From the IMG/VR virus record IMGVR_UViG_2671180890_000004: 64,000 bases of DNA. The stretch is one strand, 5' to 3'. The notes below the pieces were generated by a model. That model worked only from the letters and a program-made list of their open reading frames with translations. It was not told where the DNA came from and ran no database searches. This document shows, piece after piece, positions 3,856 to 64,000 of this stretch; the first letter of the stretch is position 1; each line of letters opens with the position of its first letter. The stretch is from a virus. Taxonomy: Duplodnaviria; Heunggongvirae; Uroviricota; Caudoviricetes. The translations under genes and the position numbers were made by a program.

Positions 3856-5625
3856 ATGAATGCTGCCCTGACTGAACGACTGGTTTATGTCGCCCGCGCG
3901 GCACGTGACGCGGGGCATGGTAAACGCGGCGCAGTATACGACGCTGCCTGTGCTGAACTTGGCATGTCCCGCGCCACTCTGCTGCGCAGGCTGAAGGAGG
4001 TATCTGTGACTGATAAACGCAAAAAACGCGCCGATGCCGGGCGCAGCGCCCTGACCCGCGACGAAGCCGCGCTGATATCTGCCACACTGCGTGAGGCCAC
4101 CCGCAAGAACGGTAAGCGTCTCTATTCCATCGCGGATGCAGTGGAAACCCTGCGGGCTAACGGCTTTATATCCGCAGGCAGAACAGATGAAACCACCGGT
4201 GAGTTTTTCCCGTTGTCCGAAGATGCCATCAGCCGAGCCCTGCGTAACTATGGCCTGCACCCGGAACAACTGGATGCCCCTGCGCCGCATACCGAAGTGG
4301 CCAGTCTGCATCCCAATCATGTCTGGCAGATTGACGCCTCACTCTGCACGCTTTACTACCTGAGCAATGGACATAAAGGGCTGCAGGTGATGGACAGCGC
4401 GAAGTTCTACAAGAACAAGCCCGCTAACCTTGCCCGTATCGCCAGTGACCGCGTGTGGAGTTACGAGATTACCGACCATGCCAGCGGCTGGATTTACGTT
4501 GAGTATGTGACGGGCGCGGAATCAGGTGAGAACCTGTGTTCTGTGCTTATCAACGCCATGCAGGAGCGTGGCGGCGCAGACGTGCTGCACGGTGTGCCGA
4601 AAATACTCTATCTCGACCCCGGCTCGGCAAACACCGCGGGTATGACGAAAAACATGTGCCGCTCACTGGGCATCGACCTGATAGCGCACAAGCCGCATAA
4701 CGCCCGCGCCACCGGACAGGTGGAAAAGGCGCGGGACATTATCGAACGCAAGCTGGAGCCGGGTCTGAAGTTCCGGCCGGTTCACAGTCTGGAAGAACTC
4801 AACGCGCTGGCCGCGAAATGGCGCAGCCACTTTAACGCCACGGCTGTTCACAGCCGCCACGGTAAAACCCGCACGGATATCTGGCTGAAGATTACTGCTG
4901 AGCAGCTGAAAAAAGCGCCTTCCGTTGAGGTATGTCGTGAACTGGCTGTGGCGGCACCAGAACTCCGCAAAGTCACGCCAAAACTTCGTGTCTCGTTCCG
5001 GGGCACTGAATTTGACGTATCAACGGTACCGGGCGTACTGGTTGGTGAAAAACTGATGATTACCCGTAACCCGTGGCGCAGCGATGTGGCACAGGTGGTT
5101 CTGACCGGTGAGGACGGCCACGAGACGTTCTTCCTGGTCGAAGAGGTCAGAAAGAACGAGTTTGGCTTTGCTGAAGGCGCGGCGGTATTTGGCGAAAGTT
5201 ACAAAGCCCTGCCGGAAACCCCGGCGCAGATGGCGGCAAAAGAAACCGAAGCGCTGGTCACCGGTACAGACAACGCCGCAGATGCAGCTGCCGCACGCAA
5301 GGCGAAGGCGCTGCCGTTCGGCGGGCGGCTTGACCCGTATAAACATATCGACGACACCACACTTCCGGCCTATATGCCGAAGCGTGGTCAGGCCTCTGAC
5401 GTACGCGGGCCGCGCACTGAACAACGTCCCATGACTTATGTGGAGGCCGCGAAAGCCCTGCGCGATAAGTTCAGCGCCAACGGCTTTACCTGGACGCCGG
5501 AACATTACCGCCAGTTAACGGCACAGTATCCGGACGGCGTACCGGAAGCCGCACTGGATGAAGTCATGGCCACGCTGACCACGCCGGCCCGCAGCAGCGT
5601 TATCAGTATTGTTAACGGCAACTGA
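3856..5625 (+). CDS. Mu-family DDE transposase (A protein)
   Basis: Catalytic-core signatures in MuA-like context and spacing: WQIDASL, YLDPGSANT, GQVEKARD. GGAGG RBS upstream. Confidence 0.85.
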   Translation: MNAALTERLVYVARAARDAGHGKRGAVYDAACAELGMSRATLLRRLKEVSVTDKRKKRADAGRSALTRDEAALISATLREATRKNGKRLYSIADAVETLRANGFISAGRTDETTGEFFPLSEDAISRALRNYGLHPEQLDAPAPHTEVASLHPNHVWQIDASLCTLYYLSNGHKGLQVMDSAKFYKNKPANLARIASDRVWSYEITDHASGWIYVEYVTGAESGENLCSVLINAMQERGGADVLHGVPKILYLDPGSANTAGMTKNMCRSLGIDLIAHKPHNARATGQVEKARDIIERKLEPGLKFRPVHSLEELNALAAKWRSHFNATAVHSRHGKTRTDIWLKITAEQLKKAPSVEVCRELAVAAPELRKVTPKLRVSFRGTEFDVSTVPGVLVGEKLMITRNPWRSDVAQVVLTGEDGHETFFLVEEVRKNEFGFAEGAAVFGESYKALPETPAQMAAKETEALVTGTDNAADAAAARKAKALPFGGRLDPYKHIDDTTLPAYMPKRGQASDVRGPRTEQRPMTYVEAAKALRDKFSANGFTWTPEHYRQLTAQYPDGVPEAALDEVMATLTTPARSSVISIVNGN

Positions 5626-5635: not shown

Positions 5636-6802
5636 ATGCTGGTACTGAAGCAGCAACTGAAAGAAGCCCGTATTCCACAGGCGGTGGTGGCGAGAGCTGT
5701 CGATGTTTCTGAGGCCACGCTGGCCCAGATTGTGAATCATAACGCGTGGCCCCGCACCAGCCCCGGAGAAGTGCGCCGGCGTCTTGCGTCCTGGCTGGAA
5801 AGTCAGGGGATTGATACAACGAAGAGTTTTGATGCTGTACAGGGCGCGGCCACGCCCCGTACAGCGGGTACCACAGATAAAACGAGCCTCAGTGAGGAAG
5901 AGAATATGTTACTCAAAAAACAGGTGTTATTTCCAGCAACCAAAAAAGCGTTTGGTCTTTTCCGTGACCCGTTCGCCGACGAAGCCATGCAGGGTTCTGA
6001 TGATGTGTTCACCACCCCGGATATTCGCTACGTGCGTGAGGCGTTGTACCAGACAGCCCGTCATGGTGGGTTTATGGCCGTCATCGGTGAGTCCGGTGCG
6101 GGTAAATCCACGCTGCGCCGCGACCTGACTGAACGTATCAACCGCGAGAATGCGCCGGTAATTGTTATCGAGCCATACATCATCGCTATGGAAGACAACG
6201 ATGTGAAAGGGAAAACCCTGAAGGCAGCAGCGATTGCCGAAGCCATTATCAGTACCATCGCACCACTGGAAAGCATCAGACGCAGTCAGGACGCCCGCTT
6301 TCGCCAGTTGCATCGCGTCCTGAAAGACAGCAGCCAGGCGGGGTTCAGCCACGTTCTGGTGATTGAGGAGGCCCACAGTCTGCCCATTCCGACACTGAAA
6401 CACCTCAAACGCTTTTTTGAGCTGGAGTCCGGTTTCAAAAAACTGCTGTCCATCGTGCTGATTGGCCAGCCGGAACTGGCGACAAAACTGTCTGAACGCA
6501 ATATGGAAGTCCGTGAAGTCGTTCAGCGCTGTGAGGTGGTCGAACTTCTGCCTCTGGACAATAACCTTGAAGAGTTTCTGACGTTCAAACTGCAACGGGC
6601 CGGTAAACAACTGACGGACATTATGGACGCCAGCGCAGTGGATGCCATACGTGCCCGCCTGAGCAATCCGGGAAGTCATCGTAAAAATATGGTCAGCCTG
6701 CTGTATCCGCTGGCCGTCAGTAACCTGGTAATAGCCGCCATGAATCTGGCCGCTGAAATCGGGGTTCCACAGGTCAACGCTGACGTTGTCAAAGGGGTTT
6801 AA
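5636..6802 (+). CDS. MuB-like transposition ATPase (AAA+)
   Basis: Walker A GESGAGKST and Walker B VLVIEEAH; located directly after the transposase. Confidence 0.8.
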   Translation: MLVLKQQLKEARIPQAVVARAVDVSEATLAQIVNHNAWPRTSPGEVRRRLASWLESQGIDTTKSFDAVQGAATPRTAGTTDKTSLSEEENMLLKKQVLFPATKKAFGLFRDPFADEAMQGSDDVFTTPDIRYVREALYQTARHGGFMAVIGESGAGKSTLRRDLTERINRENAPVIVIEPYIIAMEDNDVKGKTLKAAAIAEAIISTIAPLESIRRSQDARFRQLHRVLKDSSQAGFSHVLVIEEAHSLPIPTLKHLKRFFELESGFKKLLSIVLIGQPELATKLSERNMEVREVVQRCEVVELLPLDNNLEEFLTFKLQRAGKQLTDIMDASAVDAIRARLSNPGSHRKNMVSLLYPLAVSNLVIAAMNLAAEIGVPQVNADVVKGV

Positions 6803-19517: not shown

Positions 19518-19539
19518 AGCCACTTAAGTGGCTTTTTTT
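19518..19539. terminator. bidirectional terminator between cargo operon and int
   Basis: Stem AGCCACTT / AAGTGGCT followed by T7. Confidence 0.5.
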
Positions 19540-20696
19540 GTGATATTGCTGGTCGTATTACCGTCATATTCCTTTAAATATGAACCATAATGACGAAATA
19601 ACATTTCCGGCCCTTTATGCCCCATTTGAGCTGCAAGCCAAAACAGGTTTGCTCCCCGGCTGATATGGCGGGTGGCGAATGTATGCCTAGTTTGATATGG
19701 ATTTCTGTAACGAATACCTGCTTTTCGCAATGTTGGCACCCATGCTTTTTTCCTGATTGCATCAGCACTTGCCCAGGGCTTATTGGTCTTTGGATCTTCA
19801 AAGACAGTAGCATCCTTCATGAATGTAAATGGCTTCTGATTTATCAGCGCCAACATTGCTTCTTCAGTCAGTTCAACTTTACGGGTACCGGCTTTTGTCT
19901 TTGTCCCTTTGATAACACCGACAACACTTGCGCTCTGGACATGGGCAGTTTTTCCAACAAAGTCGATATCACGCCATCGAAGGGCACATAATTCAGAACT
20001 ACGCAGGCCTGTATGTATAGCGAACCGGAACAGATTTTCCCATTGTTTTTTTCCGGCTGCTGCTAGTAATGCATCAACTTCTGCTGGTGATAGCGGATCA
20101 ACCACGTAGCTGCTTTCTGCTTCTGACTTATCACTTTGGTAGCGCGAAGCAGTTACCAACGATACGGGGTTAATTTGAAGTACCCCATCGGTTACGGCTT
20201 CATCAAGTGCTGACCGCAGGAAAGATAACTGGTTGCGAATTGTTTTTAAGGTCGTTTTCTGGCTTTGAATCCACGCTTTCAGGATTGCTGGTGTTAATTC
20301 ACTTGCAGGGCAAATGTGGAGTGAGGCTAACGCACTACGGCATTTTTTATAACCACCAATCGTAGAGGGTGAAAGTTTTCTTGTTTCGCAGATTTCAAGA
20401 TATTCGTCCAGGTACATCTTTACCGTTTTGCCTGCAGCAGCATTACCAAAAATTTTCAAACGAGCAGAACGGGGAAAATATTCTGCATAAATGAATGTTC
20501 CCCTTTCGATCTTATTATGGATTTCGCCGAGTGTACGCTCGGCGTATTTAATGTTCTTTGGTGTTACTTCCAGATTGGAAAGCGGCTCACGACATCTAAC
20601 TCCTTTGTAGGTGAAAGTTATATTGATCGTTTCTCCCTGGCGGTGTTTCCTGATTGTTACGCCGCGCGGTAGTTTGAGCAGTTTTGTCTGGCCCAT
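19524..20696 (-). CDS. int: tyrosine recombinase (phage integrase)
   Basis: C-terminal catalytic region with conserved R (LRSSELCALRWRD), HxxR (HTFATRH) and tyrosine near LFRHYGSY; adjacent to the att core. Confidence 0.85.
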   Translation of the reverse strand: MGQTKLLKLPRGVTIRKHRQGETINITFTYKGVRCREPLSNLEVTPKNIKYAERTLGEIHNKIERGTFIYAEYFPRSARLKIFGNAAAGKTVKMYLDEYLEICETRKLSPSTIGGYKKCRSALASLHICPASELTPAILKAWIQSQKTTLKTIRNQLSFLRSALDEAVTDGVLQINPVSLVTASRYQSDKSEAESSYVVDPLSPAEVDALLAAAGKKQWENLFRFAIHTGLRSSELCALRWRDIDFVGKTAHVQSASVVGVIKGTKTKAGTRKVELTEEAMLALINQKPFTFMKDATVFEDPKTNKPWASADAIRKKAWVPTLRKAGIRYRNPYQTRHTFATRHISRGANLFWLAAQMGHKGPEMLFRHYGSYLKEYDGNTTSNITKKAT

Positions 20697-43638: not shown

Positions 43639-43906
43639 TCCCTTTTCCCGGCTGGCAGCGCGTATGGATGCGATCACGGTCAGAAAGATGGGAAAGACAG
43701 CCTCGATTAATGATGTCGATATGACTGTGATCCCGGGAGAAACACTGGCAGAGCTGAATGCTCTGTCCGGACCTGCGGTCTCTCTGGTGGTGTTTTCTTC
43801 GGGATACCGCCCACGGCGCGGGGATCGCGTTGTTTATGACGGACAACAATGGACGGTCACACGGCATGAACGCTTTAACGGTAAGCCAATGATCTTTATT
43901 GAGTAA
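43631..43906 (+). CDS. head completion/head-tail connector protein
   Basis: Size and position. Confidence 0.45.
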   Translation: MSDPFSRLAARMDAITVRKMGKTASINDVDMTVIPGETLAELNALSGPAVSLVVFSSGYRPRRGDRVVYDGQQWTVTRHERFNGKPMIFIE

Positions 43907-43917
43907 AGAGGTGTGGG

Positions 43918-44894: not shown

Positions 44895-44904
44895 GGAGGT
44901 GGTA

Positions 44905-45648: not shown

Positions 45649-45705
45649 CAGGACGATACTCATCATTTGCCCCGGTTATCAGGGGCTTTTTTGCAGGTGG
45701 AGAAC

Positions 45706-46095
45706 ATGATGTTTCTGAAACAGGGCACGTTTAATTATGAAAAGCAGTCCGTGGTGCTCAGTGAGCTGTCCGGGCTGCAGAGAATTGAATATCTGGCGTT
45801 TGTTCAGCAGCGAACGGCAAAGTTTGATGCCGAAGAGGGAGAACTGCCGGAGGCTGAACGACAGATTGCTTTTCTGCGGATGGGGATGGATATCAATGCC
45901 TGGCTGGTTTCCCGCTCACTGTGGAATGCGGAACAGTCTCAGGATGTTGAGACGCTTTGCGCATCCGTTATTACAACATGGTCGTATGATGCCCTGGGAG
46001 CGGGGGCGGAGATGGTTCTGTCGCTGAGCGGTATGGGAGCCATTGAGAATGCCGGGGATTTGGAGCATGAGGTGCTGACGCCGGAAAAGTCCTGA
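45706..46095 (+). CDS. tail assembly chaperone G
   Basis: Position before the tape measure; followed by an ORF in the -1 frame. Confidence 0.7.
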   Translation: MMFLKQGTFNYEKQSVVLSELSGLQRIEYLAFVQQRTAKFDAEEGELPEAERQIAFLRMGMDINAWLVSRSLWNAEQSQDVETLCASVITTWSYDALGAGAEMVLSLSGMGAIENAGDLEHEVLTPEKS

Positions 46096-46103
46096 CGCGG
46101 GAA

Positions 46104-46433
46104 ATGCAGTTTGTCATGCGGCTTGCCCGGGAGTTCCGGCGGGCAGACTGGCGGCGGATGCTGTCGGAAATGTCGGCCACTGAGCTTGGTGAGTGGGGCG
46201 ATTATTTCCGGATGCAGAGCTTCAGTGATGTGTGGATGGATGCGCAGTTTGCCTCGCTGAAGGCATTGATCGTGAGAATGGTGTCCGGCAGCAGTGATGC
46301 TGCGGTGGCTGATTTCAGCCTTTTACCGGAAGAGAACGGGATACCGGAGCGAACGGACGAAGAACTGATGCATCTTGGGGAAGGTATTTCCGGAGGTGTG
46401 CGTTATGGACCAGATAGCCAACCTGGTCATTGA
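46104..46433 (+). CDS. tail assembly chaperone T segment (expected to be made as a G-T fusion by -1 frameshift)
   Basis: Frame is -1 relative to G and open from 46080; candidate slip site GGAAAAG at 46083-46089. Confidence 0.6.
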   Translation: MQFVMRLAREFRRADWRRMLSEMSATELGEWGDYFRMQSFSDVWMDAQFASLKALIVRMVSGSSDAAVADFSLLPEENGIPERTDEELMHLGEGISGGVRYGPDSQPGH

Positions 46434-49400
46434 TTTGGGGATTGATGCGGCAGAGTTTAAAAATGAAATTCCCCGTATCAAAAACCTTCTGAATGGTGCA
46501 GCCAGCGATGCAGAACGGTCTTCTGCCCGTATGCAGCGTTTTATGGAGCGTCAGACTCAGGCCGCCCGGCAGACAATGCAGGCGGCGTCTTCGGCTGCAA
46601 CAGCCGCATCCGTCCATGCGCAGACGGTGGAGAAGAGCGCACAGGCTCATGAACGCATGGCCCGCGAGGTGGAGCAAACCCGCCAGCGTATGGAGGCACT
46701 GAGCCAGAAAATGCGCGAGGAACAGGCGCAGGCCATGGCTCTGGCGGAGGCTCAGGATAAAGCGGCTGCCGCGTTTTATCGTCAGATTGACAGTGTGAAA
46801 CAGGCCAGTGCGGGGTTGCAGGAATTACAGCGTATTCAGCAGCAGATCCGACAGGCCAGAAACAGTGGCGGGATTGGTCAGCAGGATTATCTGGCGCTGA
46901 TTTCTGAGGTTACGGCGAAAACCCGTGTTCTTACGCAGGCTGAGGCAGAGGCTACCCGACAGAAAGTGGCGTTTATCCGTCAGCTTAAAGAGCAGGCAAC
47001 CCGCCAGAATCTTTCTTCTTCTGAGTTGCTTCGTGCCAGGGCTGCCCAGCTGGGGGTAAGCAGTGCTGCAGAAGTGTATATCCGCAAAATGGAGCGGGCA
47101 GGAAAAGCCACGCATTCGCTGGGTCTGAAAAGTGCAGCGGCCCGCCAGGAGATAGGCGTTCTGATAGGTGAACTGGCCCGCGGCAATTTAGGGGCGCTGA
47201 GGGGATCCGGGATAACGCTGGCTAACCGTGCCGGATGGATAGACACACTGATGTCACCGAAAGGCATGATGCTGGGCGGGGTTATTGGCGGTATTACCGC
47301 GGCCGTCTATGGTCTGGGTAAAGCCTGGTATGACGGTCAGAAGGAGGGGGAAGAATTTAACCGCCAGCTGTCGCTGACGGGGCATTATGCCGGAGTCACT
47401 GCCGGGCAGCTGTGGACGCTCAGTCGTGCTATTTCCGGGAATGGTATCACGCAACATGCTGCAGCCGGTGCGCTGGCTCAGGTGGTGGGGAGTGGTGCAT
47501 TTCGTGGAAACGATATCGGTATGGTGGCGAGAGCTGCCGCACAGATGGAGCGATCGGTTGGCCAGTCGATCAGCGATACCATAAATCAGTTTAAGCGGCT
47601 GAAGGATGATCCTGTAAATGCCGCGAAGGCTCTGGACAATGAGCTGCATTTTCTTACTGCCACTCAGCTTGAGCAGATACGCATCCTTGGAGAGCAGGGG
47701 CGGTCCAGTGATGCGGCACGGATAGCCATGTCTGCACTGGCAGAGGAAACCGGTCGGCGTACTGCGGATATTGATAATAACCTCAATGCGCTGGGTAGTA
47801 CGCTGCAAACCTTGTCTGACTGGTGGAAGCAGTTCTGGGATGCGGCCATGAATATTGGTCGTGAAGATTCGCTGGATGCGCAGATTGCCACTTTGCAGGA
47901 GAAAGTATCGCGGGCGAAAAGACTCCCCTGGACGGCATCATCTTCTCAGGTTGAATACGATCAGCAGCGTCTTAACGAGCTTCAGGAGAAAAAACGCCAG
48001 AAGGATTTGCAGGATGCAAAAGAGCAGGCAGAGCGGAATTATCAGGAGCAACAGAAACGCCGTAATGCTGAAAATGCTGCACTGAACCGGATGAATGAAA
48101 CGGAAGCAGCACGACATCAGCGTGAAATTGCGCGTATTAATGCCATGCAGTACGCCGATCAGGCTGTCAGGGATGCGGCGATACAACGTGAAAATGAACG
48201 TTACGAGAAAGCCCTGGCATCCGGTAAGAAAAAAACACGCGAAACCCGTAATGATGAGGCCACCCGGTTATTGCTGCAGTACAGCCAGCAACAGGCACAG
48301 GTGGAAGGACAGATTGCTGCTGCCAGACAGTCAGCAGGCATTGCCACTGACAGGATGACAGAAGCGCATAAACAGCTTCTGGCTCTGCAGCAGCGCATCA
48401 GCGACCTGGACGGGAAAAAACTGACGGCAGATGAAAAGAGTGTGCTGGCCCGTAAAGATGAACTGATTCAGGCACTGACGCTGCTGGATGTAAAACAGCA
48501 GGAGCTTCAGAAACAGACGGCACTCAACGATCTGAAGAAAAAAACAATTCAGCTGACCAGTCAACTGGCTGAAGAAGAGCGCGCTCAGCGTCAGCAACAT
48601 GACCTGGATATCGCCACGGTGGGTATGGGTGATCAGCAGCGGCAGCGATATCAGGTACAACTGAGCCTTCGCCAGAAATACCAGCAACAGCTGGAGCAGT
48701 TGAGGCGGGATAGTGAGCAGAAAGGGACATATAACACGGATGACTACAGAAAGGCCGAGCAGGCGCTGACGGAGAGCCTGAACAGGCAACTGAATGAGAA
48801 TCGCCGTTACTGGCAACAGCTTGAAATTGCTCAGGGTAACTGGAAAAACGGTGCCATGCGGGCGTTTCAGAATTTCACGGCAGATGCGGATAATGCGGCA
48901 GGAACAGCAGAACAGGTGTTCTCGTCAGCTTTCAGCAACATGGGAAATGGCCTGGCAACTTTTGTCACTACCGGCAAACTCAACTTCAAATCCTTCACCT
49001 CTTCGGTGCTGTCAGATATGGCGAAAATCCTGGCGCAGGCAACCATGATGAAATCGATAAAAGGGATTGGCAGTGTACTGGGATTTGATCTCAGCAGCCT
49101 TTCCCTGAATGCCAATGGGGGATTTATCAGTCTGCTGATTTGAGTCGTTACAGTGGCACGGTGGTTAACCGTCCGACGTTTTTTGCTTTTGCAAAAGGCG
49201 CGGGTGTGATGGGGGAAGCTGGACCTGAAGCCATTCTGCCACTGCGTCGTGGTGCTGACGGTAAGCTGGGGGTTGTGGCGGATATTGGTGGTTCAGGTAT
49301 GGCGATGTTTGCCCCGCAGTACAACATCGAGATCAATAACGATGGCACGAACGGGCAGATAGGTCCGGCTGCCCTGAAGGTGGTTTATGACCTCGGGAAA

Positions 49401-49469
49401 AAAGCGGCAGCGGACTTTATGCAACAGCAGGCCCGTGATGGTGGTCGGTTAAGTGGAGCATATCGGTAA
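46405..49469 (+). pseudogene. tape measure protein H, split by an apparent 1-nt frameshift near 49117-49140
   Basis: N-part 46405..49143 and C-part 49140..49469 (lambda H-like ...NNDGTNGQIGPAALK... C-terminus) are in different frames. Confidence 0.7.
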
Positions 49470-49798
49470 TGGAGACGTTTCACTGGAAAGTGCGCCCGGA
49501 TATGAATGTGGTATCAGAGCCGAAAGTGGTGACAGTGAAGCTGGGCGATGGTTATGAACAGCGTCGTGCGGCGGGACTGAATAACCAGTTGTCGACTTAC
49601 AGCGTGACGATACGTGTTCGTAAATGTGAACACCCATCTTTAAAAGCCTTTCTGGAACGGCACGGTGGCGTCCGCGCATTTCAGTGGACGCCACCTTATG
49701 ACTGGAAGCCGATCAGGGTGGTTTGTCGTAAATGGTCGGCAAGCGTGGGGGCGCTGTGGGTAACCATAACGGCAGATTTTGAACAGGTCGTGGCATAG
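49469..49798 (+). CDS. minor tail protein M
   Basis: Similarity to lambda M (GDGYEQR...GGVRAFQWTPPY). Confidence 0.8.
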   Translation: METFHWKVRPDMNVVSEPKVVTVKLGDGYEQRRAAGLNNQLSTYSVTIRVRKCEHPSLKAFLERHGGVRAFQWTPPYDWKPIRVVCRKWSASVGALWVTITADFEQVVA

Positions 49799-49804
49799 GA
49801 GGCC

Positions 49805-50506
49805 ATGATGCAGGATATTCCACAGGAAACACATCATGAGACGACACGCCTCACTCAGTCAGCCCAGGTGGTGCTCTGGGAAATCGATCTGACAGAGGTC
49901 GGTGGTGAACGTTATTTTTTCTGTAATGAGCAGAACGAAAAAGGTGAGCCGGTCACCTGGCAGGGGCGGCAGTATCAGGCATACCCCATTCAGGGGACAG
50001 GATTTGAACTGAACGGCAAGGGCAGTGCTGCCCGTCCGACACTGACGGTTTCTAACCTGCACGGTATGGTCACCGGTATGGCGGAAGATCTGCAGAGTCT
50101 GGTCGGCGGAACGGTGGTCCGGCGTAAGGTTTACGCCCGTTTTCTGGATGCGGTGAACTTCGTCAACGGAAACAGTGATGCCGACCCGGAGCAGGAGGTG
50201 ATCAGCCGCTGGCGCATCGAGCAGTGCAGTGAACTGAGTGCGGTCAGTGCTTCTTTTGTACTGTCCACGCCGACGGAAACGGACGGTGCTGTTTTTCCGG
50301 GGCGTATCATGCTGGCCAACACCTGCACCTGGACCTATCGCGGTGATGAGTGCGGTTATAACGGTCCGGCTGTCGCGGATGAATATGACCAGCCGACGTC
50401 CGATATCACGAAGGATAAATGCAGCAAATGCCTGAGCGGCTGTAAGTTTCGCAATAACGTCGGCAACTTTGGCGGTTACCTTTCCATTAACAAACTTTCG
50501 CAGTAA
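49805..50506 (+). CDS. minor tail protein L
   Basis: Lambda L-like; C-terminal Cys cluster (CSKCLSGCKF). Confidence 0.8.
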   Translation: MMQDIPQETHHETTRLTQSAQVVLWEIDLTEVGGERYFFCNEQNEKGEPVTWQGRQYQAYPIQGTGFELNGKGSAARPTLTVSNLHGMVTGMAEDLQSLVGGTVVRRKVYARFLDAVNFVNGNSDADPEQEVISRWRIEQCSELSAVSASFVLSTPTETDGAVFPGRIMLANTCTWTYRGDECGYNGPAVADEYDQPTSDITKDKCSKCLSGCKFRNNVGNFGGYLSINKLSQ

Positions 50507-50511
50507 ATCCC

Positions 50512-51255
50512 ATGACAGAGACAGAATCAGCGATTCTGGCGCACGCCCGGCGATGTGCGCCAGCGGAGTCGTGCGGCTTCGTGGTGAGAATGCCGGAGGG
50601 AGAAAGATATTTTCCCTGCGTGAATATCTCCGGTGAGCCGGAGGCGTATTTCCGGATGGCTCCGGAGGACTGGCTGCGGGCAGAAATGCAGGGTGAGATT
50701 GTGGCGCTGGTCCACAGTCACCCCGGTGGTCTGCCCTGGCTGAGTGAGGCCGATCGGCGGCTGCAGGTGCAGAGTGATTTGCCGTGGTGGCTGGTCTGCC
50801 GCGGGGCGATTCACAAGTTCCGCTGTGTGCCACATCTTACCGGGCGGCGCTTTGAGCACGGGGTGACGGACTGTTACACGCTGTTCCGGGATGCATACCA
50901 TCTGGCGGGAATTGAGATGCCGGATTTTCATCGCGGAGATGACTGGTGGCGTAACGGCCAGAATCTCTATCTTGACAATATGGAGGCGACTGGTTTTTAC
51001 CGTGTCGCACTGACAGAGGCGCAGCCGGGCGATGTGCTGCTGTGCTGTTTTGGTTCATCGGTGCCGAATCATGCCGCCATTTACTGTGGTGATGGCGAGC
51101 TGCTGCACCATATTCCTGAACAACTGAGCAAACGAGAGAGGTATACCGACAAATGGCAGCGACGCACACACTCCCTCTGGCGTCACCGGGCATGGCGCGC
51201 ATCTGCCTTTACGGGGATTTGCAACGATTTGGCCGCCGCATCGACCTTCGTGTGA
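50512..51255 (+). CDS. tail assembly protein K (MPN/JAB plus NlpC/P60)
   Basis: JAMM-like HSHP motif (VALVHSHPGG) and lambda order. Confidence 0.75.
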   Translation: MTETESAILAHARRCAPAESCGFVVRMPEGERYFPCVNISGEPEAYFRMAPEDWLRAEMQGEIVALVHSHPGGLPWLSEADRRLQVQSDLPWWLVCRGAIHKFRCVPHLTGRRFEHGVTDCYTLFRDAYHLAGIEMPDFHRGDDWWRNGQNLYLDNMEATGFYRVALTEAQPGDVLLCCFGSSVPNHAAIYCGDGELLHHIPEQLSKRERYTDKWQRRTHSLWRHRAWRASAFTGICNDLAAASTFV

Positions 51256-51800
51256 AAACGGGGGCTGAAGCCATCCGGGCGCTGGCCACACAGCTTCCGT
51301 CGTTTCGCCAGAAACTGAATGAGGGCTGGTATCAGGTGCGCATTGCCGGGCGTGATGCAGGCGAAAATGAATTATCTGCCCGTCTTAATGAGCCGCTGGA
51401 AAATGGTGCCGTGATTCACATCGTGCCGCGTATGGCGGGAGCTAAAAGTGGCGGTGTGTTTCAGGTGGTGCTGGGGGCGGCGCTGATTGCGGTGGCATGG
51501 TGGAACCCTGTGGGCTGGCTGGGTGCTGCGGCTGTATCGGGCATGTATGCGGCAGGGGCCAGTATGATCCTGGGTGGTGTGGCCCAGATGCTGGCACCGA
51601 AAGCCAGGACGCCCACGGCAGCCAGTACAGATAACGGCAAACAGAACACCTATTTCTCCTCACTGGATAACATGGTTGCTCAGGGCAATGTTCTGCCTGT
51701 TCTGTACGGTGAAATGCGTGTGGGGTCGCGGGTGGTTTCTCAGGAGATCAGCACGGCAGACGAAGGTGACGGTGGTCAGGTTGTGGTGATTGGTCGCTGA
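51153..51800 (+). CDS. tail assembly protein I
   Basis: Lambda I-like C-terminus (NGKQNTYFSSLDNMVAQGNVLPVLYGEMRVGSRVVSQEIS); the 5' end overlaps K, so the true start is probably internal. Confidence 0.7.
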   Translation: MAATHTLPLASPGMARICLYGDLQRFGRRIDLRVKTGAEAIRALATQLPSFRQKLNEGWYQVRIAGRDAGENELSARLNEPLENGAVIHIVPRMAGAKSGGVFQVVLGAALIAVAWWNPVGWLGAAAVSGMYAAGASMILGGVAQMLAPKARTPTAASTDNGKQNTYFSSLDNMVAQGNVLPVLYGEMRVGSRVVSQEISTADEGDGGQVVVIGR

Positions 51801-51821
51801 TGCAAAATGTTTTATGTGAAA

Positions 51822-51842
51822 CCGCCTGCGGGCGGTTTTGTC
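51822..51842 (+). terminator. terminator-like hairpin after I
   Basis: Stem ACCGCC / GGCGGT followed by TTTTG. Confidence 0.35.
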
Positions 51843-51860
51843 GTTTATGGAGCATGACGA

Positions 51861-54800
51861 ATGGGTAAAGGCAGCAGTAAGGGGCATACCCCGCGCGAAG
51901 CGAAGGACAACCTGAAGTCCACGCAGTTGCTGAGTGTGATCGATGCCATCAGCGAAGGGCCGGTTGAAGGTCCGGTGGATGGGTTAAAAAGCGTGCTGCT
52001 GAACAGTACGCCGGTGCTGGACAGTGAGGGGAATACCAATATCTCCGGTGTCACGGTGGTGTTCCGGGCAGGTGAGCAGGAGCAGACTCCGCCGGAGGGG
52101 TTTGAATCCTCCGGTTCCGAGACGGTGCTGGGTACGGAAGTGAAATACGACACGCCGATCACCCGGACCATTACGTCGGCAAACATCGACCGACTGCGCT
52201 TTACCTTCGGTGTGCAGGCACTGGTGGAAACCACTTCAAAGGGTGACCGGAATCCGTCGGAAGTCCGCCTGCTGGTTCAGATACAACGTAACGGTGGCTG
52301 GGTGACGGAAAAAGACATCACCATTAAAGGCAAAACCACCTCGCAGTATCTGGCCTCGGTGGTGGTGGATAACCTGCCGCCGCGCCCGTTTAATATCCGG
52401 ATGCGCAGGATGACGCCGGACAGCACCACAGACCAGCTGCAGAACAAAACGCTCTGGTCGTCATACACCGAAATCATCGATGTGAAACAGTGCTACCCGA
52501 ATACGGCACTGGTCGGCGTACAGGTGGATTCGGAGCAGTTCGGCAGCCAGCAGGTGAGCCGTAATTATCATCTTCGCGGGCGCATTCTGCAGGTGCCGTC
52601 GAACTATAACCCGCAGACGCGGCAATACAGCGGTATCTGGGACGGAACGTTTAAGCCAGCATACAGCAACAACATGGCCTGGTGTCTGTGGGATATGCTG
52701 ACCCATCCGCGCTACGGCATGGGGAAACGTCTTGGTGCGGCGGATGTGGACAAATGGGCGCTGTATGTCATCGGCCAGCATTGCGATCAGTCGGTGCCGG
52801 ACGGTTTTGGCGGCACGGAGCCGCGCATCACCTGTAATGCGTACCTGACCACACAGCGCAAGGCGTGGGATGTGCTCAGTGATTTCTGCTCTGCGATGCG
52901 CTGTATGCCGGTATGGAACGGGCAGACGCTGACGTTCGTGCAGGACCGACCGTCGGATAAGGTGTGGACCTATAACCGCAGTAATGTGGTGATGCCGGAT
53001 GATGGTGCGCCGTTCCGCTACAGCTTCAGCGCCCTGAAGGACCGCCATAATGCCGTTGAGGTGAACTGGATTGACCCGAATAACGGCTGGGAGACGGCGA
53101 CAGAGCTTGTGGAGGACACGCAGGCCATTGCCCGTTACGGTCGTAACGTCACGAAGATGGATGCTTTTGGCTGTACCAGCCGGGGGCAGGCACACCGCGC
53201 CGGGCTGTGGCTGATTAAAACAGAACTGCTGGAAACGCAGACCGTGGACTTCAGCGTGGGTGCCGAAGGGCTTCGCCATGTACCGGGCGATGTCATTGAA
53301 ATCTGCGATGATGACTATGCCGGTATCCGCACCGGCGGGCGCGTGCTGGCGGTAAACAGCCAGACCCGGACGCTGACGCTCGACCGTGAAATCACGCTGC
53401 CATCTTCCGGCACCACGCTGATAAGCCTGGTTGACGGGCAGGGGAGTCCGGTCAGCGTGGAGGTTCAGTCCGTCACCGACGGCGTGAAGGTGAAAGTGAG
53501 CCGTGTTCCTGACGGCGTTGCTGAATACAGCGTATGGGGGCTGAAGCTGCCGACGTTGCGCCAGCGCCTGTTCCGCTGCGTGAGTATCCGTGAGAACGAC
53601 GACGGCACGTATGCCATCACCGCCGTGCAGCATGTACCGGAAAAAGAGGCCATCGTGGATAACGGGGCGCACTTTGACGGCGACCAGAGCGGCACGGTAA
53701 ATGGTGTCACGCCGCCAGCGGTGCAGCACCTGACCGCAGAAGTCACCGCAGACAGCGGGGAATACCAGGTGCTGGCGCGCTGGGACACGCCGAAGGTGGT
53801 GAAGGGCGTGAGCTTCCTGCTTCGCCTGACCGTGGCAGCGGATGACGGCCGTGAGCGGCTGGTCAGCACGGCCCGGACGACGGAAACCACTTACCGCTTC
53901 ACACAACTGGCTCTGGGGAACTACAGGCTGACAGTCCGGGCAGTAAATGCGTGGGGCAGCAGGGCGATCCGGCGTCGGTATCGTTCCGGATTGCCGCACC
54001 GGCAGCGCCGTCGCGGATTGAGCTGACGCCGGGCTATTTTCAGATAACCGCCACGCCGCATCTTGCGGTTTATGACCCGACGGTACAGTTTGAGTTCTGG
54101 TTCTCGGAAAAACGGATTGCGGATATCAGGCAGGTTGAAACCAGCGCGCGTTATCTTGGTACGGCACTGTACTGGATAGCCGCCAGTATCAATATCAAAC
54201 CGGGCCATGATTATTATTTTTACGTTCGCAGTGTGAACACCGTTGGCAAATCGGCATTCGTGGAGGCTGTCGGTCAGCCGAGTGATGATGCATCAGGCTA
54301 TCTGGATTTTTTCAAAGGCGAGATAGGGAAAACCCATCTGGCTCAGGAGCTGTGGACGCAGATTGATAACGGTCAGCTTGCGCCTGACCTGACTGAAATC
54401 AGGACGTCCATAACGGATGTCAGCAATGAAATAACACAGACCGTCAATAAGAAACTGGAAGACCAGAGTGCAGCGATCCAGCAGATACAGAAGGTTCAGG
54501 TTGATACAAATAATAACCTGAACAGCATGTGGGCAGTGAAGCTGCAGCAGATGCAGGACGGACGCCTTTATATTGCGGGTATCGGTGCCGGTATTGAGAA
54601 CACCCCTGACGGCATGCAGAGTCAGGTGCTGCTGGCAGCAGACAGGATTGCGATGATTAATCCTGCGAATGGCAACACAAAGCCGATGTTTGTTGGTCAG
54701 GGCGATCAGATATTCATGAATGAAGTGTTCCTGAAACGCCTGACGGCCCCCACCATTACCAGCGGCGGTAATCCTCCGGCATTTTCCCTGACATCAGACG

Positions 54801-55357
54801 GGAGACTGACGGCGAAAAATGCGGATATCAGTGGCAGTGTGAATGCGAACTCAGGAACGCTCAACAATGTCACGATTAACCAGAACTGTACGATTAAGGG
54901 CATGCTGGAGGCGACCCAGGTCAGAGGAGATTTCGTTAAAGCTGTATCAAAAGCCTTCCCGAAAAAAGTCGGTACGTGGGGTAACACGGAAACACCAAAC
55001 GGTACGGTTACAGTCACCATCAGCGATGATCATAACTTTGACCGCCAGATTATTATTCCGCCCATTATTTTTAACGGTATAGCGTATGACGCTCCGGGGA
55101 GCGGAAATAACCCGGGAGGCACGCGATACACGGGTTATGGTTTTGAAGTTCGCAAAAACGGCGTATTAATCGCATCCAGAGAAACTAAAGGGGCCATTCC
55201 CGGTAGTTACAGTGCAGTTATTGATATGCCTAGTGGTGGTGGTAGCGTCACTCTGGAGTTTAAGATTTTCCAGAAAGGCAATCAGGGGGCAGGCAATATC
55301 ACCGACTGTACGGTGATTGTGACCAAAAAAGCGGCTTCCGGCATCAGTATTCGTTGA
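51861..55357 (+). pseudogene. host-specificity (central tail fibre) protein J, split by a 1-nt deletion at ~53953-53956
   Basis: N-part 51861..54026 ends ...AVNAWG then goes out of frame; C-part 53951..55357 continues the lambda J sequence ([28 protein letters not shown]...) in the -1 frame. Confidence 0.8.
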
Positions 55358-55380
55358 AATATTTATAACCCCAATAAATG

Positions 55381-55406
55381 GCGTCAGGAATGACGCCTTT
55401 TTTATT
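55381..55406 (+). terminator. rho-independent terminator after J
   Basis: Stem GGCGTC / GACGCC followed by a T-run. Confidence 0.45.
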
Positions 55407-55427: not shown

Positions 55428-56027
55428 ATGCGTAAAGTTTGTGCCGCCATTTTGTCCGCAGCCATTTGTCTGGCCGTATCCGGTGCGCCTGCATGGGCGT
55501 CTGAACATCAGTCCACGCTGAGCGCGGGGTATCTTCATGCCCGGACCAACGTTCCCGGCAGTGATGATCTGAACGGGATTAACGTGAAATACCGTTATGA
55601 GTTTACGGATACGCTGGGGCTGGTGACGTCATTCAGCTATGCAGGAGACAAGAATCGCCAGCTGACCCATTACAGCGATACTCGCTGGCATGAAGATTCC
55701 GTTCGTAACCGCTGGTTCAGCGTAATGGCGGGGCCGTCTGTGCGCGTGAATGAATGGTTCAGCGCGTATGCGATGGCGGGTGTGGCTTACAGCCGTGTGT
55801 CGACTTTCTCCGGGGATTATCTCCGCGTAACTGACAACAAGGGGAAAACGCACGATGTGCTGATCGGAAGTGATGACGGTCGCCACAGCAACACGTCTCT
55901 GGCGTGGGGGGCTGGCGTGCAGTTTAACCCGACCGAATCCGTGGCCGTTGATGTCGCTTATGAAGGTTCCGGCAGTGGCGACTGGCGCACTGACGGTTTC
56001 ATCGTGGGTGTCGGTTATAAATTCTGA
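55428..56027 (+). CDS. lom: outer-membrane protein Lom (Ail/Lom/PagC family)
   Basis: Signal peptide and beta-barrel-like alternating pattern ending in a C-terminal aromatic (GYKF). Confidence 0.85.
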   Translation: MRKVCAAILSAAICLAVSGAPAWASEHQSTLSAGYLHARTNVPGSDDLNGINVKYRYEFTDTLGLVTSFSYAGDKNRQLTHYSDTRWHEDSVRNRWFSVMAGPSVRVNEWFSAYAMAGVAYSRVSTFSGDYLRVTDNKGKTHDVLIGSDDGRHSNTSLAWGAGVQFNPTESVAVDVAYEGSGSGDWRTDGFIVGVGYKF

Positions 56028-56052
56028 TTAGCCAGGTAACACAGTGTTATGA

Positions 56053-56080
56053 CAGCCCGCCGGTTCAGGCGGGCTTTTTT
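56053..56080 (+). terminator. rho-independent terminator after lom
   Basis: Stem GCCCGCC / GGCGGGC followed by T6. Confidence 0.6.
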
Positions 56081-56091
56081 GTGGGGTGAAT

Positions 56092-59000
56092 ATGGCAGTA
56101 AAGATTTCAGGTGTACTGAAAGACGGCACAGGAAAACCGGTACAGAACTGCACAATCCAGCTGAAAGCAAAACGTAACAGCACCACGGTGGTGGTGAACA
56201 CGCTGGCCTCAGAAAATCCGGATGAAGCCGGGCGTTACAGCATGGACGTTGAGTACGGTCAGTACAGCGTTATTCTGTTGGTGGAAGGATTCCCGCCGTC
56301 ACATGCCGGGACCATCACCGTGTATGAAGATTCCCGACCCGGTACGCTGAATGATTTTCTCGGTGCCATGACGGAGGATGATGCCCGTCCGGAGGCTCTG
56401 CGCCGTTTTGAACTGATGGTGGAAGAGGTGACGCGTAACGCGTCCGCGGTGGCACAGAACACGGCAGCCGCGAAGAAGTCAGCCAGTGATGCCGGCACAT
56501 CTGCCCGTGAGGCGGCAACCCATGCGACTGATGCTGCAGGCTCAGCGCGTGCAGCCAGCACGTCAGCCGGACAGGCCGCGACTTCGGCTCAGGAGGCGTC
56601 TTCCAGCGCAGGAACGGCATCAACAAAGGCCACTGAAGCATCAAAAAGTGCTGCCGCTGCAGAGTCCTCAAAAAGCGCGGCGGCCACCAGTGCCGGTGCG
56701 GCGAAAACGTCAGAAACGAATGCTGCAGCGTCACAAAAATCAGCAGCCACTTCTGCATCCACTGCGACGACGAAAGCGTCAGAAGCCGCCACTTCAGCCA
56801 GAGATGCGGCGGCCTCCAAAGAGGCGGCAAAATCATCAGAAACGAACGCCTCCACAAGCGCCAGCAGTGCAGCCTCCTCGGCAACGGCGGCAGGAAATTC
56901 CGTGAAGGCGGCAAAAACGTCCGAGACGAATGCCAGGTCTTCTGAAACGGCAGCGGAACAGAGCGCCTCAGCTGCGGCAGACTCTGAGACAGCAGCTGCA
57001 TCATCGGCCCGTGAGGCGTCCATTAAGGCAGAGGAGGCAGCAGTCAGTGCCACCGCCGCCGGAAAATCGGCAGAAAGTGCCGCATCGTCTGCTTCAACAG
57101 CCACAACGAAGGCTGGCGAAGCCACTGAACAGGCCAGCGCAGCAGCGAGGTCTGCTTCCGCAGCGAAGACATCCGAGACGAACGCGAAAGCGTCGGAAAC
57201 CAGCGCAGAATCCTCAAAAACGGCTGCCGCATCGTCCGCCAGTTCGGCGGCGTCATCGGCATCATCGGCGTCTGCTTCAAAAGATGAGGCGACCAGACAA
57301 GCGTCCGCAGCGAAGGGCAGCGCCACGACAGCATCCACGAAGGCGACAGAGGCAGCTGGCAGTGCGACGGCGGCAGCACAGAGCAAAAGTACGGCGGAAT
57401 CCGCGGCAACGCGCGCCGAGACAGCGGCAAAACGGGCAGAGGATATTGCATCCGCCGTGGCGCTTGAGGATGCAAGTACGACGAAAAAGGGGATAGTACA
57501 GCTCAGCAGTGCGACCAACAGTACGTCTGAAACGCTGGCGGCAACGCCAAAGGCAGTAAAATCAGCCTATGACAATGCAGAGAAACGTCTGCAGAAAGAC
57601 CAGAACGGCGCTGATATACCCGATAAGGGACGCTTCCTGAACAACATTAACGCGGTCAGTAAAACAGACTTTGCTGATAAGCGTGGTATGCGTTATGTGC
57701 GGGTTAACGCTCCTGCAGGTGCAACATCTGGAAAATATTACCCTGTTGTTGTTATGCGTTCTGCTGGCTCAGTAAGCGAACTGGCATCAAGGGTCATTAT
57801 CACCACGGCAACGCGAACCGCAGGCGATCCGATGAATAACTGCGAGTTTAACGGGTTTGTTATGCCTGGTGGCTGGACTGACAGGGGGCGTTATGCTTAT
57901 GGAATGTTCTGGCAATATCAAAACAATGAACGAGCCATCCACTCAATAATGATGAGTAATAAGGGCGATGATTTGCGCTCTGTGTTCTATGTTGATGGCG
58001 CTGCTTTCCCTGTTTTTGCGTTTATCGAAGATGGCCTGTCAATATCCGCACCTGGTGCTGATCTCGTTGTTAATGATACGACCTATAAGTTTGGGGCAAC
58101 AAATCCAGCGACTGAATGTATCGCGGCGGACGTTATCCTTGATTTTAAGAGTGGGCGTGGTTTTTATGAGTCTCATTCGTTAATCGTTAACGATAACTTG
58201 TCGTGCAAAAAACTTTTTGCCACAGACGAAATTGTAGCGCGTGGTGGTAATCAGATTCGAATGATAGGTGGGGAGTATGGTGCATTATGGCGTAATGATG
58301 GCGCTAAAACTTACCTGCTGCTTACCAATCAAGGTGATGTTTATGGTGGCTGGAATACATTAAGACCGTTTGCTATTGATAACGCAACCGGCGAACTGGT
58401 TATTGGAACCAAACTGTCCGCAAGTCTGAACGGTAATGCATTAACAGCAACAAAGCTGCAAACGCCAAGACTGGTTTCTGGGGTTGAGTTTGATGGTTCC
58501 AGAGATATTACTTTAACCGCTGCGCATGTTGCTGCTTTTGCCAGAAGAGCAACGGATACGTATGCCGATGCGGATGGGGGCGTTCCCTGGAATGCCGAAT
58601 CAGGCGCTTACAATGTCACTCGCTCTGGCGACAGCTATATTCTGGTTAACTTCTATACCGGAGTCGGAAGTTGCCGGACATTGCAGATGAAGGCGCATTA
58701 CAGAAATGGAGGTCTGTTCTACCGTTCCTCAAGAGATGGCTATGGTTTTGAGGAAGGCTGGGCAGAAGTTTATACCTCGAAAAATCTTCCACCAGAAAGC
58801 TACCCAGTCGGCGCACCAATCCCGTGGCCATCAGATACCGTTCCGTCTGGTTATGCCCTGATGCAGGGGCAGACTTTTGACAAATCTGCTTACCCGAAAC
58901 TTGCAGCCGCTTATCCGTCAGGCGTGATCCCTGATATGCGTGGCTGGACGATTAAGGGCAAACCTGCCAGTGGTCGGGCCGTATTGTCTCAGGAACAGGA

Positions 59001-59490
59001 CGGTATTAAATCGCACACCCACAGCGCCAGCGCATCCAGTACGGATTTGGGGACGAAAACCACATCGTCGTTTGATTACGGCACTAAATCCACGAATAAC
59101 ACTGGTGCGCATACCCATAGTTTAAGTGGCAGCACGAATGCAGCTGGTAATCACAGCCATAGAGATGGCCGTCGATTTAACCCCAGTGTTTTTAAAGATA
59201 CTTATCAATATGGTTATACAAGCTCAGGTCAAAATACCTGGGGTGTACAAGGCTCAGTAGGTATGTCTACGGGGTGGTTAGCGAATACCAGTACAGATGG
59301 TAATCATAGCCATTCACTGTCCGGCACAGCAGCATCTGCAGGTGCACACGCGCATACTGTCGGTATTGGTGCTCATACGCACTCCGTTGCGATTGGTTCA
59401 CATGGACACACCATCACCGTTAACGCTGCTGGTAACGCGGAAAACACCGTCAAAAACATCGCATTTAACTATATTGTGAGGCTTGCATAA
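56092..59490 (+). CDS. stf: side tail fibre protein (Stf-like) with Ala/Ser-rich repeats
   Basis: Long Ala/Ser/Thr repeat region and His-rich GxHxH repeats near the C-terminus. Confidence 0.8.
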
Positions 59491-60074
59491 TGGCATTCAG
59501 AATGAGTGAACAAGCACGGACCATAAAAATTTATAATCTGCTGGCCGGAACTAATGAATTTATTGGTGAAGGTGACGCATATATTCCGCCTCATACAGGT
59601 CTGCCAGCAAACAGTACCGATATTGCACCACCAGATATTCCGGCAGGCTTCGTGGCTGTTTTCAACAGTGATGAGGCATCGTGGCATCTCGTTGAAGACC
59701 ATCGGGGTAAAACGGTTTATGACGTGGCTTCCGGCGACGCGTTATTTATTTCTGAACTCGGTCCGTTACCGGAAAATGTTACCTGGTTGTCGCCGGGAGG
59801 GGAATATCAGAAGTGGAACGGCACAGCCTGGGTGAAGGATACGGAAGCAGAAAAACTGTTCCGGATCCGGGAGGCAGAAGAAACAAAAAACAGCCTGATG
59901 CAGGTAGCCAGTGAGCATATTGCGCCACTTCAGGATGCTGTAGATCTGGAAATCGCAACGGAGGAAGAAACCTCATTGCTGGAAGCCTGGAAAAAGTATC
60001 GGGTGTTGCTGAACCGTGTTGATACATCAACTGCACCGGATATTGAGTGGCCAGAAGAACCAGACACCGTGTAA
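59490..60074 (+). CDS. tfa: tail fibre assembly protein
   Basis: Size and position after stf. Confidence 0.75.
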
Positions 60075-60076
60075 GC

Positions 60077-60124
60077 AAAAAAGAAAAACCGCAGACACGA
60101 CGTATGCATGACGTGCTGCGGTTT
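60077..60124. terminator. long hairpin between tfa and the GIY-YIG gene
   Basis: Stem AAACCGCAG...CTGCGGTTT with an A-run on the plus side (U-tract on the minus strand). Confidence 0.4.
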
Positions 60125-60143
60125 ATGCTTATCACTTAAAGAC

Positions 60144-60962
<819 letters not shown>

Positions 60963-61323
60963 TCATTGCAAGGGCTCACAACCAGTAGTGTTGAGAAAAC
61001 CATCGGAGAAATGAGGCTAAGCCTTTGAATTTACATAGTACAAAAAAGATACTTTTCCTCATAATGTGAGCTAATTTTATGTTTCGTTTGATGATTGGAC
61101 CGGTCTCGAAAACCGTAGACACATAGTATGCGTTAATTTATGAACAAACTACTTGTCTGCTGTTTTTCTGTCATTAGTCGTATATAGAATGATTCTCTAT
61201 GCCTAACAAAGCATCACCAGTGCTAGATTACGTTGTAGTCACTGTTTAAATATCCAGATAAAACATTTCCTTCTGGGTTGAATGAGTGATAAAGTTTCAC
61301 CCATTAGACCCCTTGGAGGAATT

Positions 61324-62757
61324 ATGTCTGAATTTGAAGTGTTGGCACAGCATCTGCTGAAGGAAGCCGAGGCGGAAGAAAAGCTGCGACAGGAAAATGA
61401 TAAAAAGCTTATCGAGAAAGTGCTGGAAATCTATGATCAGAAGTATGTGGCTGAATTACTGAGAAAAGTCGGAAAAAATGAGTGGAGCCGTGAAACCATT
61501 AACCGCTGGATTAATGGCAAGTGTTTACCAAAATCGTTGACTTCAGTAGAAGAGTCTCTTCTGCGTAAGATGCTACCAGAACCACCTGCAAACCATCCGG
61601 AATATGCTTTCCGCTTCATTGACTTATTTGCTGGAATTGGAGGGATACGGAAAGGTTTTGAGGCCATTGGAGGCCAGTGTGTTTTTACCAGTGAATGGAA
61701 TAAAGATGCTGTGCGTACATACAAGGCCAACTGGTTTAACGATGAACAGGTGCATAAATTCAATCTCGATATTCGGGAAGTCACGCTGAGTGATAAAACC
61801 GATGTATTGGAAACGGATGCTTATGCATATATTGATGAGCATGTGCCGGATCATGATGTGCTTCTTGCGGGGTTCCCGTGCCAGCCATTTAGCCTTGCTG
61901 GTGTTAGTAAGAAAAACTCACTTGGTCGTGCGCATGGTTTTGAATGTGAAGCACAAGGAACACTTTTTTTTGACGTGGCACGTATTATACGAGCAAAAAA
62001 ACCGGCAATTTTTGTGCTGGAAAATGTCAAAAATCTGAAGAGCCATGATAAGGGTAAAACTTTCAAAGTCATTATGGAGACCCTTGACGAGCTGGGCTAC
62101 GAAGTTGCCGATGCTGCAGAAATGGGAAAAAACGATCCAAAGATTATCGATGGGAAGCATTTTTTGCCTCAGCATCGTGAACGTATTGTTCTGGTCGGAT
62201 TTAGACGAGATCTGAATATTCACAAGGGGTTTACCTTGCGTGATATCAGTCGTTTTTATCCGGAACACCGCCCATCATTTGGTGAATTGCTGGAGCCTGT
62301 AGTCGACAGTAAATATATACTTACGCCAAAACTATGGGAGTACCTTTATAACTACGCCAAAAAGCATGCAGCCAAGGGGAATGGTTTTGGCTTTGGGTTG
62401 GTCAATCCTGAGAATAAGGAAAGCATTGCACGCACACTTTCTGCCAGATATCACAAAGACGGATCAGAAATTCTTATTGATCGTGGTTGGGATATGGCAA
62501 CGGGAGAGGCTGACTTTATGAATGAGAGTAATCAGGCTCGTCGACCACGCAGGCTGACTCCCCGAGAGTGCGCACGCCTTATGGGATTTGAAAAACCTGG
62601 AGGGAAACCATTCCGTATTCCGGTTTCAGATACTCAGTCATATCGGCAGTTCGGTAACTCAGTTGTGGTGCCAGTATTTGAAGCTGTTGCCAGACTTCTG
62701 GAACCCTATATCCTCAAAGCTGTTTCTGCTGATGCTGGTAAGACTGGGCAGCCTTGA
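61324..62757 (+). CDS. DNA cytosine-5 methyltransferase, Dcm/M.EcoRII family (CCWGG)
   Basis: C5-MTase motifs [27 protein letters not shown] and high recalled similarity to Dcm/M.EcoRII; GGAGGA RBS at start MSEFEV. Confidence 0.85.
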
Positions 62758-62763
62758 GAACAT

Positions 62764-62791: not shown

Positions 62792-64000
62792 CTATGATAG
62801 TTCAGCGTAAAGCTCTATCAGCTCAGTAATGAATGCTCCGAGCGTTATTAATTCTTCTCTAACTGCTTCTGGGTATTTTTTATGTAAAGTTGATGGTACA
62901 ACGAGTCTGACACCCGCATCTTTCATTTCTCGGTATTGTGCTGAAGAAACACCTTCTTGCAGTGTAAATAAATGTACCTGATGGATTTTATCTGCTTCAT
63001 TCAGTATCTGACGCCAGCGATCTTTGCAGGTGGTCTTTACTGCCAGCATACGTAAGTTTTCTACAGGAAATTCAACGTTATGATATGCCTCTGCTGAAGG
63101 AAACAGGAAATCTGGTTTTTTATTACCTTCAGTAACTGCCTGAGTGGAGAAATGCCGTAGTCCGTGCTCGATAAAAAGCTTCTCTAGGTGAAGTTCAAGT
63201 GATTTGCCTGCCCTTGATTTACGTCGATTACTGACAGAGTTGGCTAATGCAATAAACTCATCTACAGAATCGAATCCTTTCTTAATAATATCAAGAACAT
63301 GTAATTCCTCGACGAGTAGAAAAATATCATACTCGACACGCCGACGGTCAATCAGTTGCTCATCTGGATCCTTGGAGTTTTTAGCATAATGGCCAGCAGC
63401 ATATTGAATAATTTCGTTTCCAGAAGGAAAACGCTTCTTCCAGTCTTCAGGAATAACATATTTATGATTTACTGGAGTTTGCTGAAGAGACAATCCGCCC
63501 AAAATTTGTCCGGCAGGGCCGGAAATTAGGGTTCCAGGTATGATTTCGCCAATAGCAGACTCGATGATATCCTCTTCATCGGGATTGACGCAGACCCATA
63601 TATCTACCTCGGAACAGTCAGTGTTCTGTTCGTTTAACCTGAAAGCAAGAATTGTGAGGGCTCCTGTATTTTCAGGGTTCTGTAATGGACTTCCTCTCCC
63701 CCAGCGCGTAATTCTTTTTTCGTTTCGGGTCTTACCAAAATAACGGTTGTTGTAATAAATTGCGCGTGCTTGGGTATCAGGGCAATCATGGGATGATACA
63801 TGCGCAGTAAGGAAGACTGAAGGGTTCAGTTCGCGAGTATGATTGATAGATGGAAAAAGCTTTTCAACGATATTTGAGGGGATATAAAGTCCGACCTGAT
63901 GGCCACCTGTTGCGCCTGTGTCGTTTGCAGAAAGGCGTTTGATGTAGATAAAGTAATTCCCGCTTGCGATATCAAGCAGCCAGTTATGAAAAACCGACAT
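62792..64000 (-). CDS. EcoRII-like type II restriction endonuclease
   Basis: Recalled near-identity to R.EcoRII along its length; convergent with a Dcm-family methylase; start codon is the last three bases of the window. Confidence 0.75.
   Translation of the reverse strand: MSVFHNWLLDIASGNYFIYIKRLSANDTGATGGHQVGLYIPSNIVEKLFPSINHTRELNPSVFLTAHVSSHDCPDTQARAIYYNNRYFGKTRNEKRITRWGRGSPLQNPENTGALTILAFRLNEQNTDCSEVDIWVCVNPDEEDIIESAIGEIIPGTLISGPAGQILGGLSLQQTPVNHKYVIPEDWKKRFPSGNEIIQYAAGHYAKNSKDPDEQLIDRRRVEYDIFLLVEELHVLDIIKKGFDSVDEFIALANSVSNRRKSRAGKSLELHLEKLFIEHGLRHFSTQAVTEGNKKPDFLFPSAEAYHNVEFPVENLRMLAVKTTCKDRWRQILNEADKIHQVHLFTLQEGVSSAQYREMKDAGVRLVVPSTLHKKYPEAVREELITLGAFITELIELYAELS

Follow-up and report, generated by a model that had tools for sequence, protein, structure and literature searches.

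Split tail genes J and H of a lambdoid prophage most likely reflect homopolymer undercalls in its assembly

The tail genes of the prophage and their two breaks

The sequence analyzed here is a stretch of 64,000 nucleotides (IMG/VR record IMGVR_UViG_2671180890_000004), which is called the window in the following. It contains a lambdoid prophage that carries int, a repressor gene, Q, lysis, terminase, portal and capsid genes, a full tail gene set and the genes lom, stf and tfa. Downstream of H-M-L, the synteny K-I-J-lom-stf-tfa is present, and the whole order H-M-L-K-I-J-lom-stf-tfa is common to lambda and to prophages with homologues of gpJ (phiSTEC1575-Stx2k J, WP_061157894.1). The following features are relevant for the tail genes:

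19524..20696, minus strand: integrase gene, one limit of the lambdoid prophage
46405..49143, plus strand: N-terminal ORF of the tape-measure gene H, 912 aa, truncated by a G-run contraction
49117..49121, plus strand: run of five G in H, the second contraction site
49122..49469, plus strand: remainder of H in the -1 frame, with a stop codon that overlaps the ATG of gene M at 49469
51861..54026, plus strand: N-terminal ORF of J, 721 aa, of which about 698 residues are native J
53953..53956, plus strand: run of four G in J, a one-nucleotide contraction that shifts J to the -1 frame; the relatives examined have five G
53957..55357, plus strand: remainder of J in the -1 frame, listed as ORF 53951..55357 with 468 aa from a GTG
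56092..59490: stf
59490..60074: tfa, the other limit of the prophage

The DNA at 53940-53962 reads GCAGTAAATGCGTGGGGCAGCAG and includes the four-G run at 53953-53956. In the original prediction, J had been described as split by the loss of one nucleotide in a G-run. This description is accurate, also in its coordinates, as the run consists of four G in the window and of five G in the relatives. The translation shows that the first J ORF leaves the native sequence after ...RAVNAWG and continues with 23 out-of-frame residues to the TGA at 54024-54026. The J-like sequence resumes in the -1 frame, as had also been noted (ORF listed from 53951), and runs to 55357. A continuous J frame, which comprises about 1130-1165 codons in the gpJ family, is absent in the window, where it is split at 53953-53956. 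The split is a deterministic feature of the sequence and not a statistical one. No internal stop codons are present in the remainder of J (53957..55357), which differs by a single amino acid from J of strain AST81. Addition of one G at 53953-53956 is sufficient to obtain an intact J of 1165 aa with no other defect. The protein repaired in this way matches WP_061157894.1 with 100% identity and is again one amino acid off the J protein of AST81.

Pfam analysis of the first J ORF identified FNIII-A_GpJ, Phage-tail_3 and 90 of the 104 positions of Ig_J. The second ORF contains Ig_J_second, Phage_Tail_Tip and the receptor-binding Ig_GpJ_C. Combined, the domains of both ORFs give the same series as the intact 1165-aa J of phiSTEC1575-Stx2k, and the order FNIII-A_GpJ, Phage-tail_3, Ig_J, Ig_J_second, Phage_Tail_Tip, Ig_GpJ_C is also that of the lambda gpJ family. 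The J protein of lambda is composed of hub domains, FNIII-1, FNIII-2, a helical shaft, a central straight fibre and a receptor-binding domain (PMC11101478; PMC10721106). From the position of the break within Ig_J and the roles of the lambda domains it follows that J is interrupted inside the last strand region of FNIII-1. In contrast to its gpJ relatives, which have an unbroken frame, J of the window loses its frame after residue 698 for lack of one G, a lesion common to no relative.

A second lesion, which had been overlooked in the original prediction, was found in H when every indel of the window was listed against AST81, QA-1986 83 and GCA_025988625.1. The run at 49117-49121 consists of five G in the window and of six G in all relatives and in the draft assembly GCA_014081925.1, so that it is likewise contracted by one base. 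Addition of one G at this position gives an H protein of 1021 aa with no other defect. Every other indel that separates the window from any one of the three relatives is also present in another relative. These remaining indels, being common to more than one relative, are therefore ordinary polymorphisms, and the indels private to the window within 64 kb are these two. Both are G-run contractions and each of them is located in an essential tail gene. The parts of J and H downstream of the breaks show neither accumulated stop codons nor unusual substitutions. Since no decay is visible 3' of either break, the lesions must be extremely young or they are not real.

Occurrence of the contracted runs in related genomes

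The J site was compared with homologous sequences. In a pairwise alignment with phiSTEC1575-Stx2k over 143 columns, the only difference is a single gap, which corresponds to four G versus five G. The best 30 phage records and the best 40 E. coli records all fit one extra base at this site. This comparison with homologous J genes, which had been proposed together with the original prediction, thus shows that the relatives have one more G and that it restores the frame. Among the complete E. coli genomes of RefSeq, a 71-mer centred on the J run was present in 5,694 copies, distributed over 3,414 of 5,426 genomes. None of these 5,694 copies has the four-G allele, the best match being 98.6%, i.e., a single gap. 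The 30-mer with four G also has no exact match in the GTDB representative genomes.

In IMG/VR, the 31-mer with five G occurs in at least 120 contigs and the 30-mer with four G in one contig. This contig, the only other four-G copy found in IMG/VR, IMGVR_UViG_2531839454_000013, belongs to a different prophage with 96.7% identity to the window. Over 14 kb (positions 1-14230), it shows 132 gap positions in comparison to the window, mostly one-base deletions, and therefore seems to be an error-laden assembly of low accuracy. Exact protein look-ups with the truncated J (721 aa) and the truncated H (912 aa) were both empty, so neither lesion is recorded as a called protein.

J fragments of another kind were observed in the E. 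coli assembly GCA_000492655.1. There, an intact I-J pair is preceded, at 4769-6103, by J fragments of 358 aa and 82 aa and by an additional I gene, a layout that suggests rearrangement or duplication of the tail-tip region. Genome L012, for which no J was called, was considered as another case of a J lesion, but its J type is too diverged for the blast comparison to be informative.

The exact repaired J and H proteins are both present in the public protein collection. The draft assembly GCA_014081925.1 encodes the repaired H on DABNDR010000012 and the repaired J on DABNDR010000027. Three contigs of this draft match the window at positions 36405-50590, 50631-55392 and 55438-64000, which amounts to 27,511 bases. 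Over these bases, no mismatch and only two differences were detected, both of them the G-run contractions described above. Contig 20 is 100.000% identical to window positions 55438-64000. The comparison covers 27.5 kb, from position 36405 rightward. For the sequence 5' of 36405, look-ups of several proteins (gpI, a 313-aa HTH protein, a 187-aa YmfL-like protein and a 112-aa protein) in GCA_014081925.1 returned entries that were too common or not recorded. With zero mismatches over 27,511 bases, the genome of the window and GCA_014081925.1 are indistinguishable, and thus belong to the same strain or clone. The draft may represent a clonal relative rather than the identical isolate.

The original prediction had concluded that a disrupted J would block the adsorption of released particles. 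This biological part is probably wrong, as GCA_014081925.1 has five G and an intact J that is exactly the repaired protein. An additional G that restores the frame had been named as the observation that would speak against a disrupted J, and such a G is in effect present in this independent assembly. The description of the split itself stands.

Possible origins of the two contractions

Three explanations were considered for the breaks. The first is that the gap is bypassed or even used by the phage, through a programmed -1 frameshift, transcriptional slippage, a restart at the GTG at 53951 or a phase-variable G tract. We regard this as highly improbable. Lambda-like phages do use a programmed -1 frameshift in G-T, and rejoining of the two J frames would require a shift in this same direction. 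However, a slippery heptamer of the type X_XXY_YYZ is present neither in the 172-nt overlap of the J frames nor in the 55-nt overlap of the H frames, and the same overlaps contain no A/T run of 7 nt or more. A GTG for a restart is available at 53951, but no Shine-Dalgarno motif was found in the 22 nt before it or before the TTG at 49140. Moreover, the break in J cuts inside a beta-sandwich domain, and the two-frame arrangement is not conserved, because all homologues examined keep a continuous frame. Recoding and re-initiation were rejected for lack of a slippery heptamer, a Shine-Dalgarno motif, a long A/T run and a conserved split.

Phase-variable loci are characterized by long tracts, usually of 7 nt or more, whose length is polymorphic among strains. 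If the G tracts of H and J were reversible slipped-strand switches, the prophage would be tail-less in most cells and only rare revertants would be infectious. This scenario appears extremely doubtful. The tracts of 4-5 nt are too short for efficient phase variation, and a J run of four G is absent from the thousands of copies examined (0 of 5,694). Phase variation was therefore rejected as very unlikely.

The second explanation is that neither split is biological and that the assembly of the window contains one homopolymer undercall in J and another one in H. Judged from the sequence comparisons, we consider this reading probable (about 0.8). According to it, a true run of five G in J would have been written as four G and a true run of six G in H as five G. 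With intact J (1165 aa) and H (1021 aa) proteins, the lambda-like tail gene set of the real prophage would then be complete. Of two otherwise indistinguishable assemblies, the window has the shorter G-run at both sites of difference, and the relatives side with the draft, a pattern that is characteristic of homopolymer undercalling. Within the 27.5 kb, 2 of about 30 G/C runs with a true length of at least five are contracted, in comparison to 0 of 103 A/T runs of at least five. We infer that the error lies in the window rather than in GCA_014081925.1 and that it was caused by the sequencing technology. The contigs of the draft end at repeats (50590/50631 and 55392/55438), whereas the window is continuous at these places, pointing to a long-read or finished assembly as its source.

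Long-read assemblies are reported to err mostly through false deletions in homopolymers of about 4-5 nt, by which genes become fragmented (PMC12007338). The window resembles assemblies with such errors, or those from 454 or Ion Torrent data, in its one-base contractions of short homopolymers and its apparent frameshifted pseudogenes. It also follows the long-read pattern in that the pseudogenes are missing from a short-read assembly of the same genome while nothing else differs. It departs from this error class in that only two events are found in 64 kb, both in G-runs. No homopolymer differences were observed in 8 kb of host genes or in the 11.5-kb Mu-like element of the window. A general excess of homopolymer errors is therefore not demonstrated by two differences in 64 kb.

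The third explanation is that real slipped-strand mutations produced both contractions very recently, so that the prophage would be freshly tail-defective. The sequence of the window as given carries both frameshifts, but if they were real, two independent indels would have to have occurred with zero substitutions in 27.5 kb in comparison to the nearest genome, although substitutions are normally more frequent than indels. Homopolymer runs are natural sites and genuine hot spots of slippage. The two changes, however, have the same direction and the same base type. As a counterpoint to the undercall reading, both lesions are located in prophage genes that are dispensable for the host, a class of genes in which true decay would likewise be expected; in a lysogen, no selection acts on prophage tail genes. 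The loss of the tail nevertheless gives the host no benefit that could select a double hit, and neither break is followed by decay downstream. Truncated or partial J entries are seen in other assemblies as well, e.g., the 358-aa and 82-aa fragments in GCA_000492655.1, but the J run with four G was found in no other genome of good quality. The position of the break, at 90 of 104 positions of Ig_J in Pfam, also fits a true loss of function, as a functional split is not expected there. Frameshifted J and H genes in an otherwise complete prophage would be typical of the way in which decay begins. In defective lambdoid prophages of E. coli, real decay is normally accompanied by substitutions, further lesions and sharing within a lineage, whereas the lesions of the window are unique, two in number, both located in G-runs and the sole differences from the sister genome. 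Taken together, we consider real frameshifts unlikely, and an undercall in both genes remains the preferred explanation.

Consequences for the prophage and adjacent elements

If homopolymer undercalling is the cause, the two pseudogenes are of no biological relevance. As nothing else distinguishes the window from an independent assembly over the bases compared, the prophage is to be regarded as probably intact and inducible. Neither J nor this kind of prophage is new, and the split is most probably an artefact of the assembly. The result is mainly useful for quality control, since it keeps an apparently complete lambdoid prophage from being labelled defective. Neither an artefact nor a real lesion would add anything new to phage biology.

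In lambda, J starts the initiator complex of tail assembly and H sets the tail length. If the lesions were real, J would be shortened by its C-terminal 40%, from the last strand of FNIII-1 through FNIII-2, the helical shaft and the central fibre to the receptor-binding domain. H would lack its C-terminal 116 aa, including, by analogy to lambda, the helix by which the protein docks onto the gpI plug of the tail tip. The C-terminal helix of lambda gpH sits in the lumen of the tip, on the gpI tripod (PMC10721106). Given the roles of J and H in lambda tail assembly, the double lesion would most likely result in no functional tails at all, which goes beyond a mere block of adsorption. Induction would lead to lysis and to filled heads, with no infectious particles. 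Such a prophage would be a textbook case of the onset of prophage decay, a process that is already well documented.

Additional genes were identified at the right end of the prophage, towards ssrA. This cargo consists of a LEM-3-like GIY-YIG gene (60144..60917, minus strand), a Dcm-type cytosine methyltransferase gene (61282..62757) and an EcoRII-like restriction endonuclease gene (62792..64000, minus strand), which is cut by the end of the window. The last two genes form an EcoRII-like restriction-modification pair.

The left part of the window (1-11543) is occupied by a Mu-like transposable prophage with genes for a transposase (3856..5625), an ExeA/MuB-like protein (5636..6802), Gam and Mor. 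It ends at 11543 within gabP, of which the first approximately 374 nt, on the minus strand and up to 11913, are kept. In comparison to FDAARGOS_1299, the element shows 2 substitutions and 0 gaps. The same element is found at different sites in other E. coli, for example beside a truncated sfaA in FDAARGOS_1299.

The stf gene (56092-59490, 1132 aa) is a rare allele, as the exact protein is recorded on only two contigs. The otherwise nearly identical AST81 prophage encodes an Stf of 986 aa that contains nothing corresponding to the segment at about 57573-58810, and this difference hints at a mosaic exchange within the fibre.
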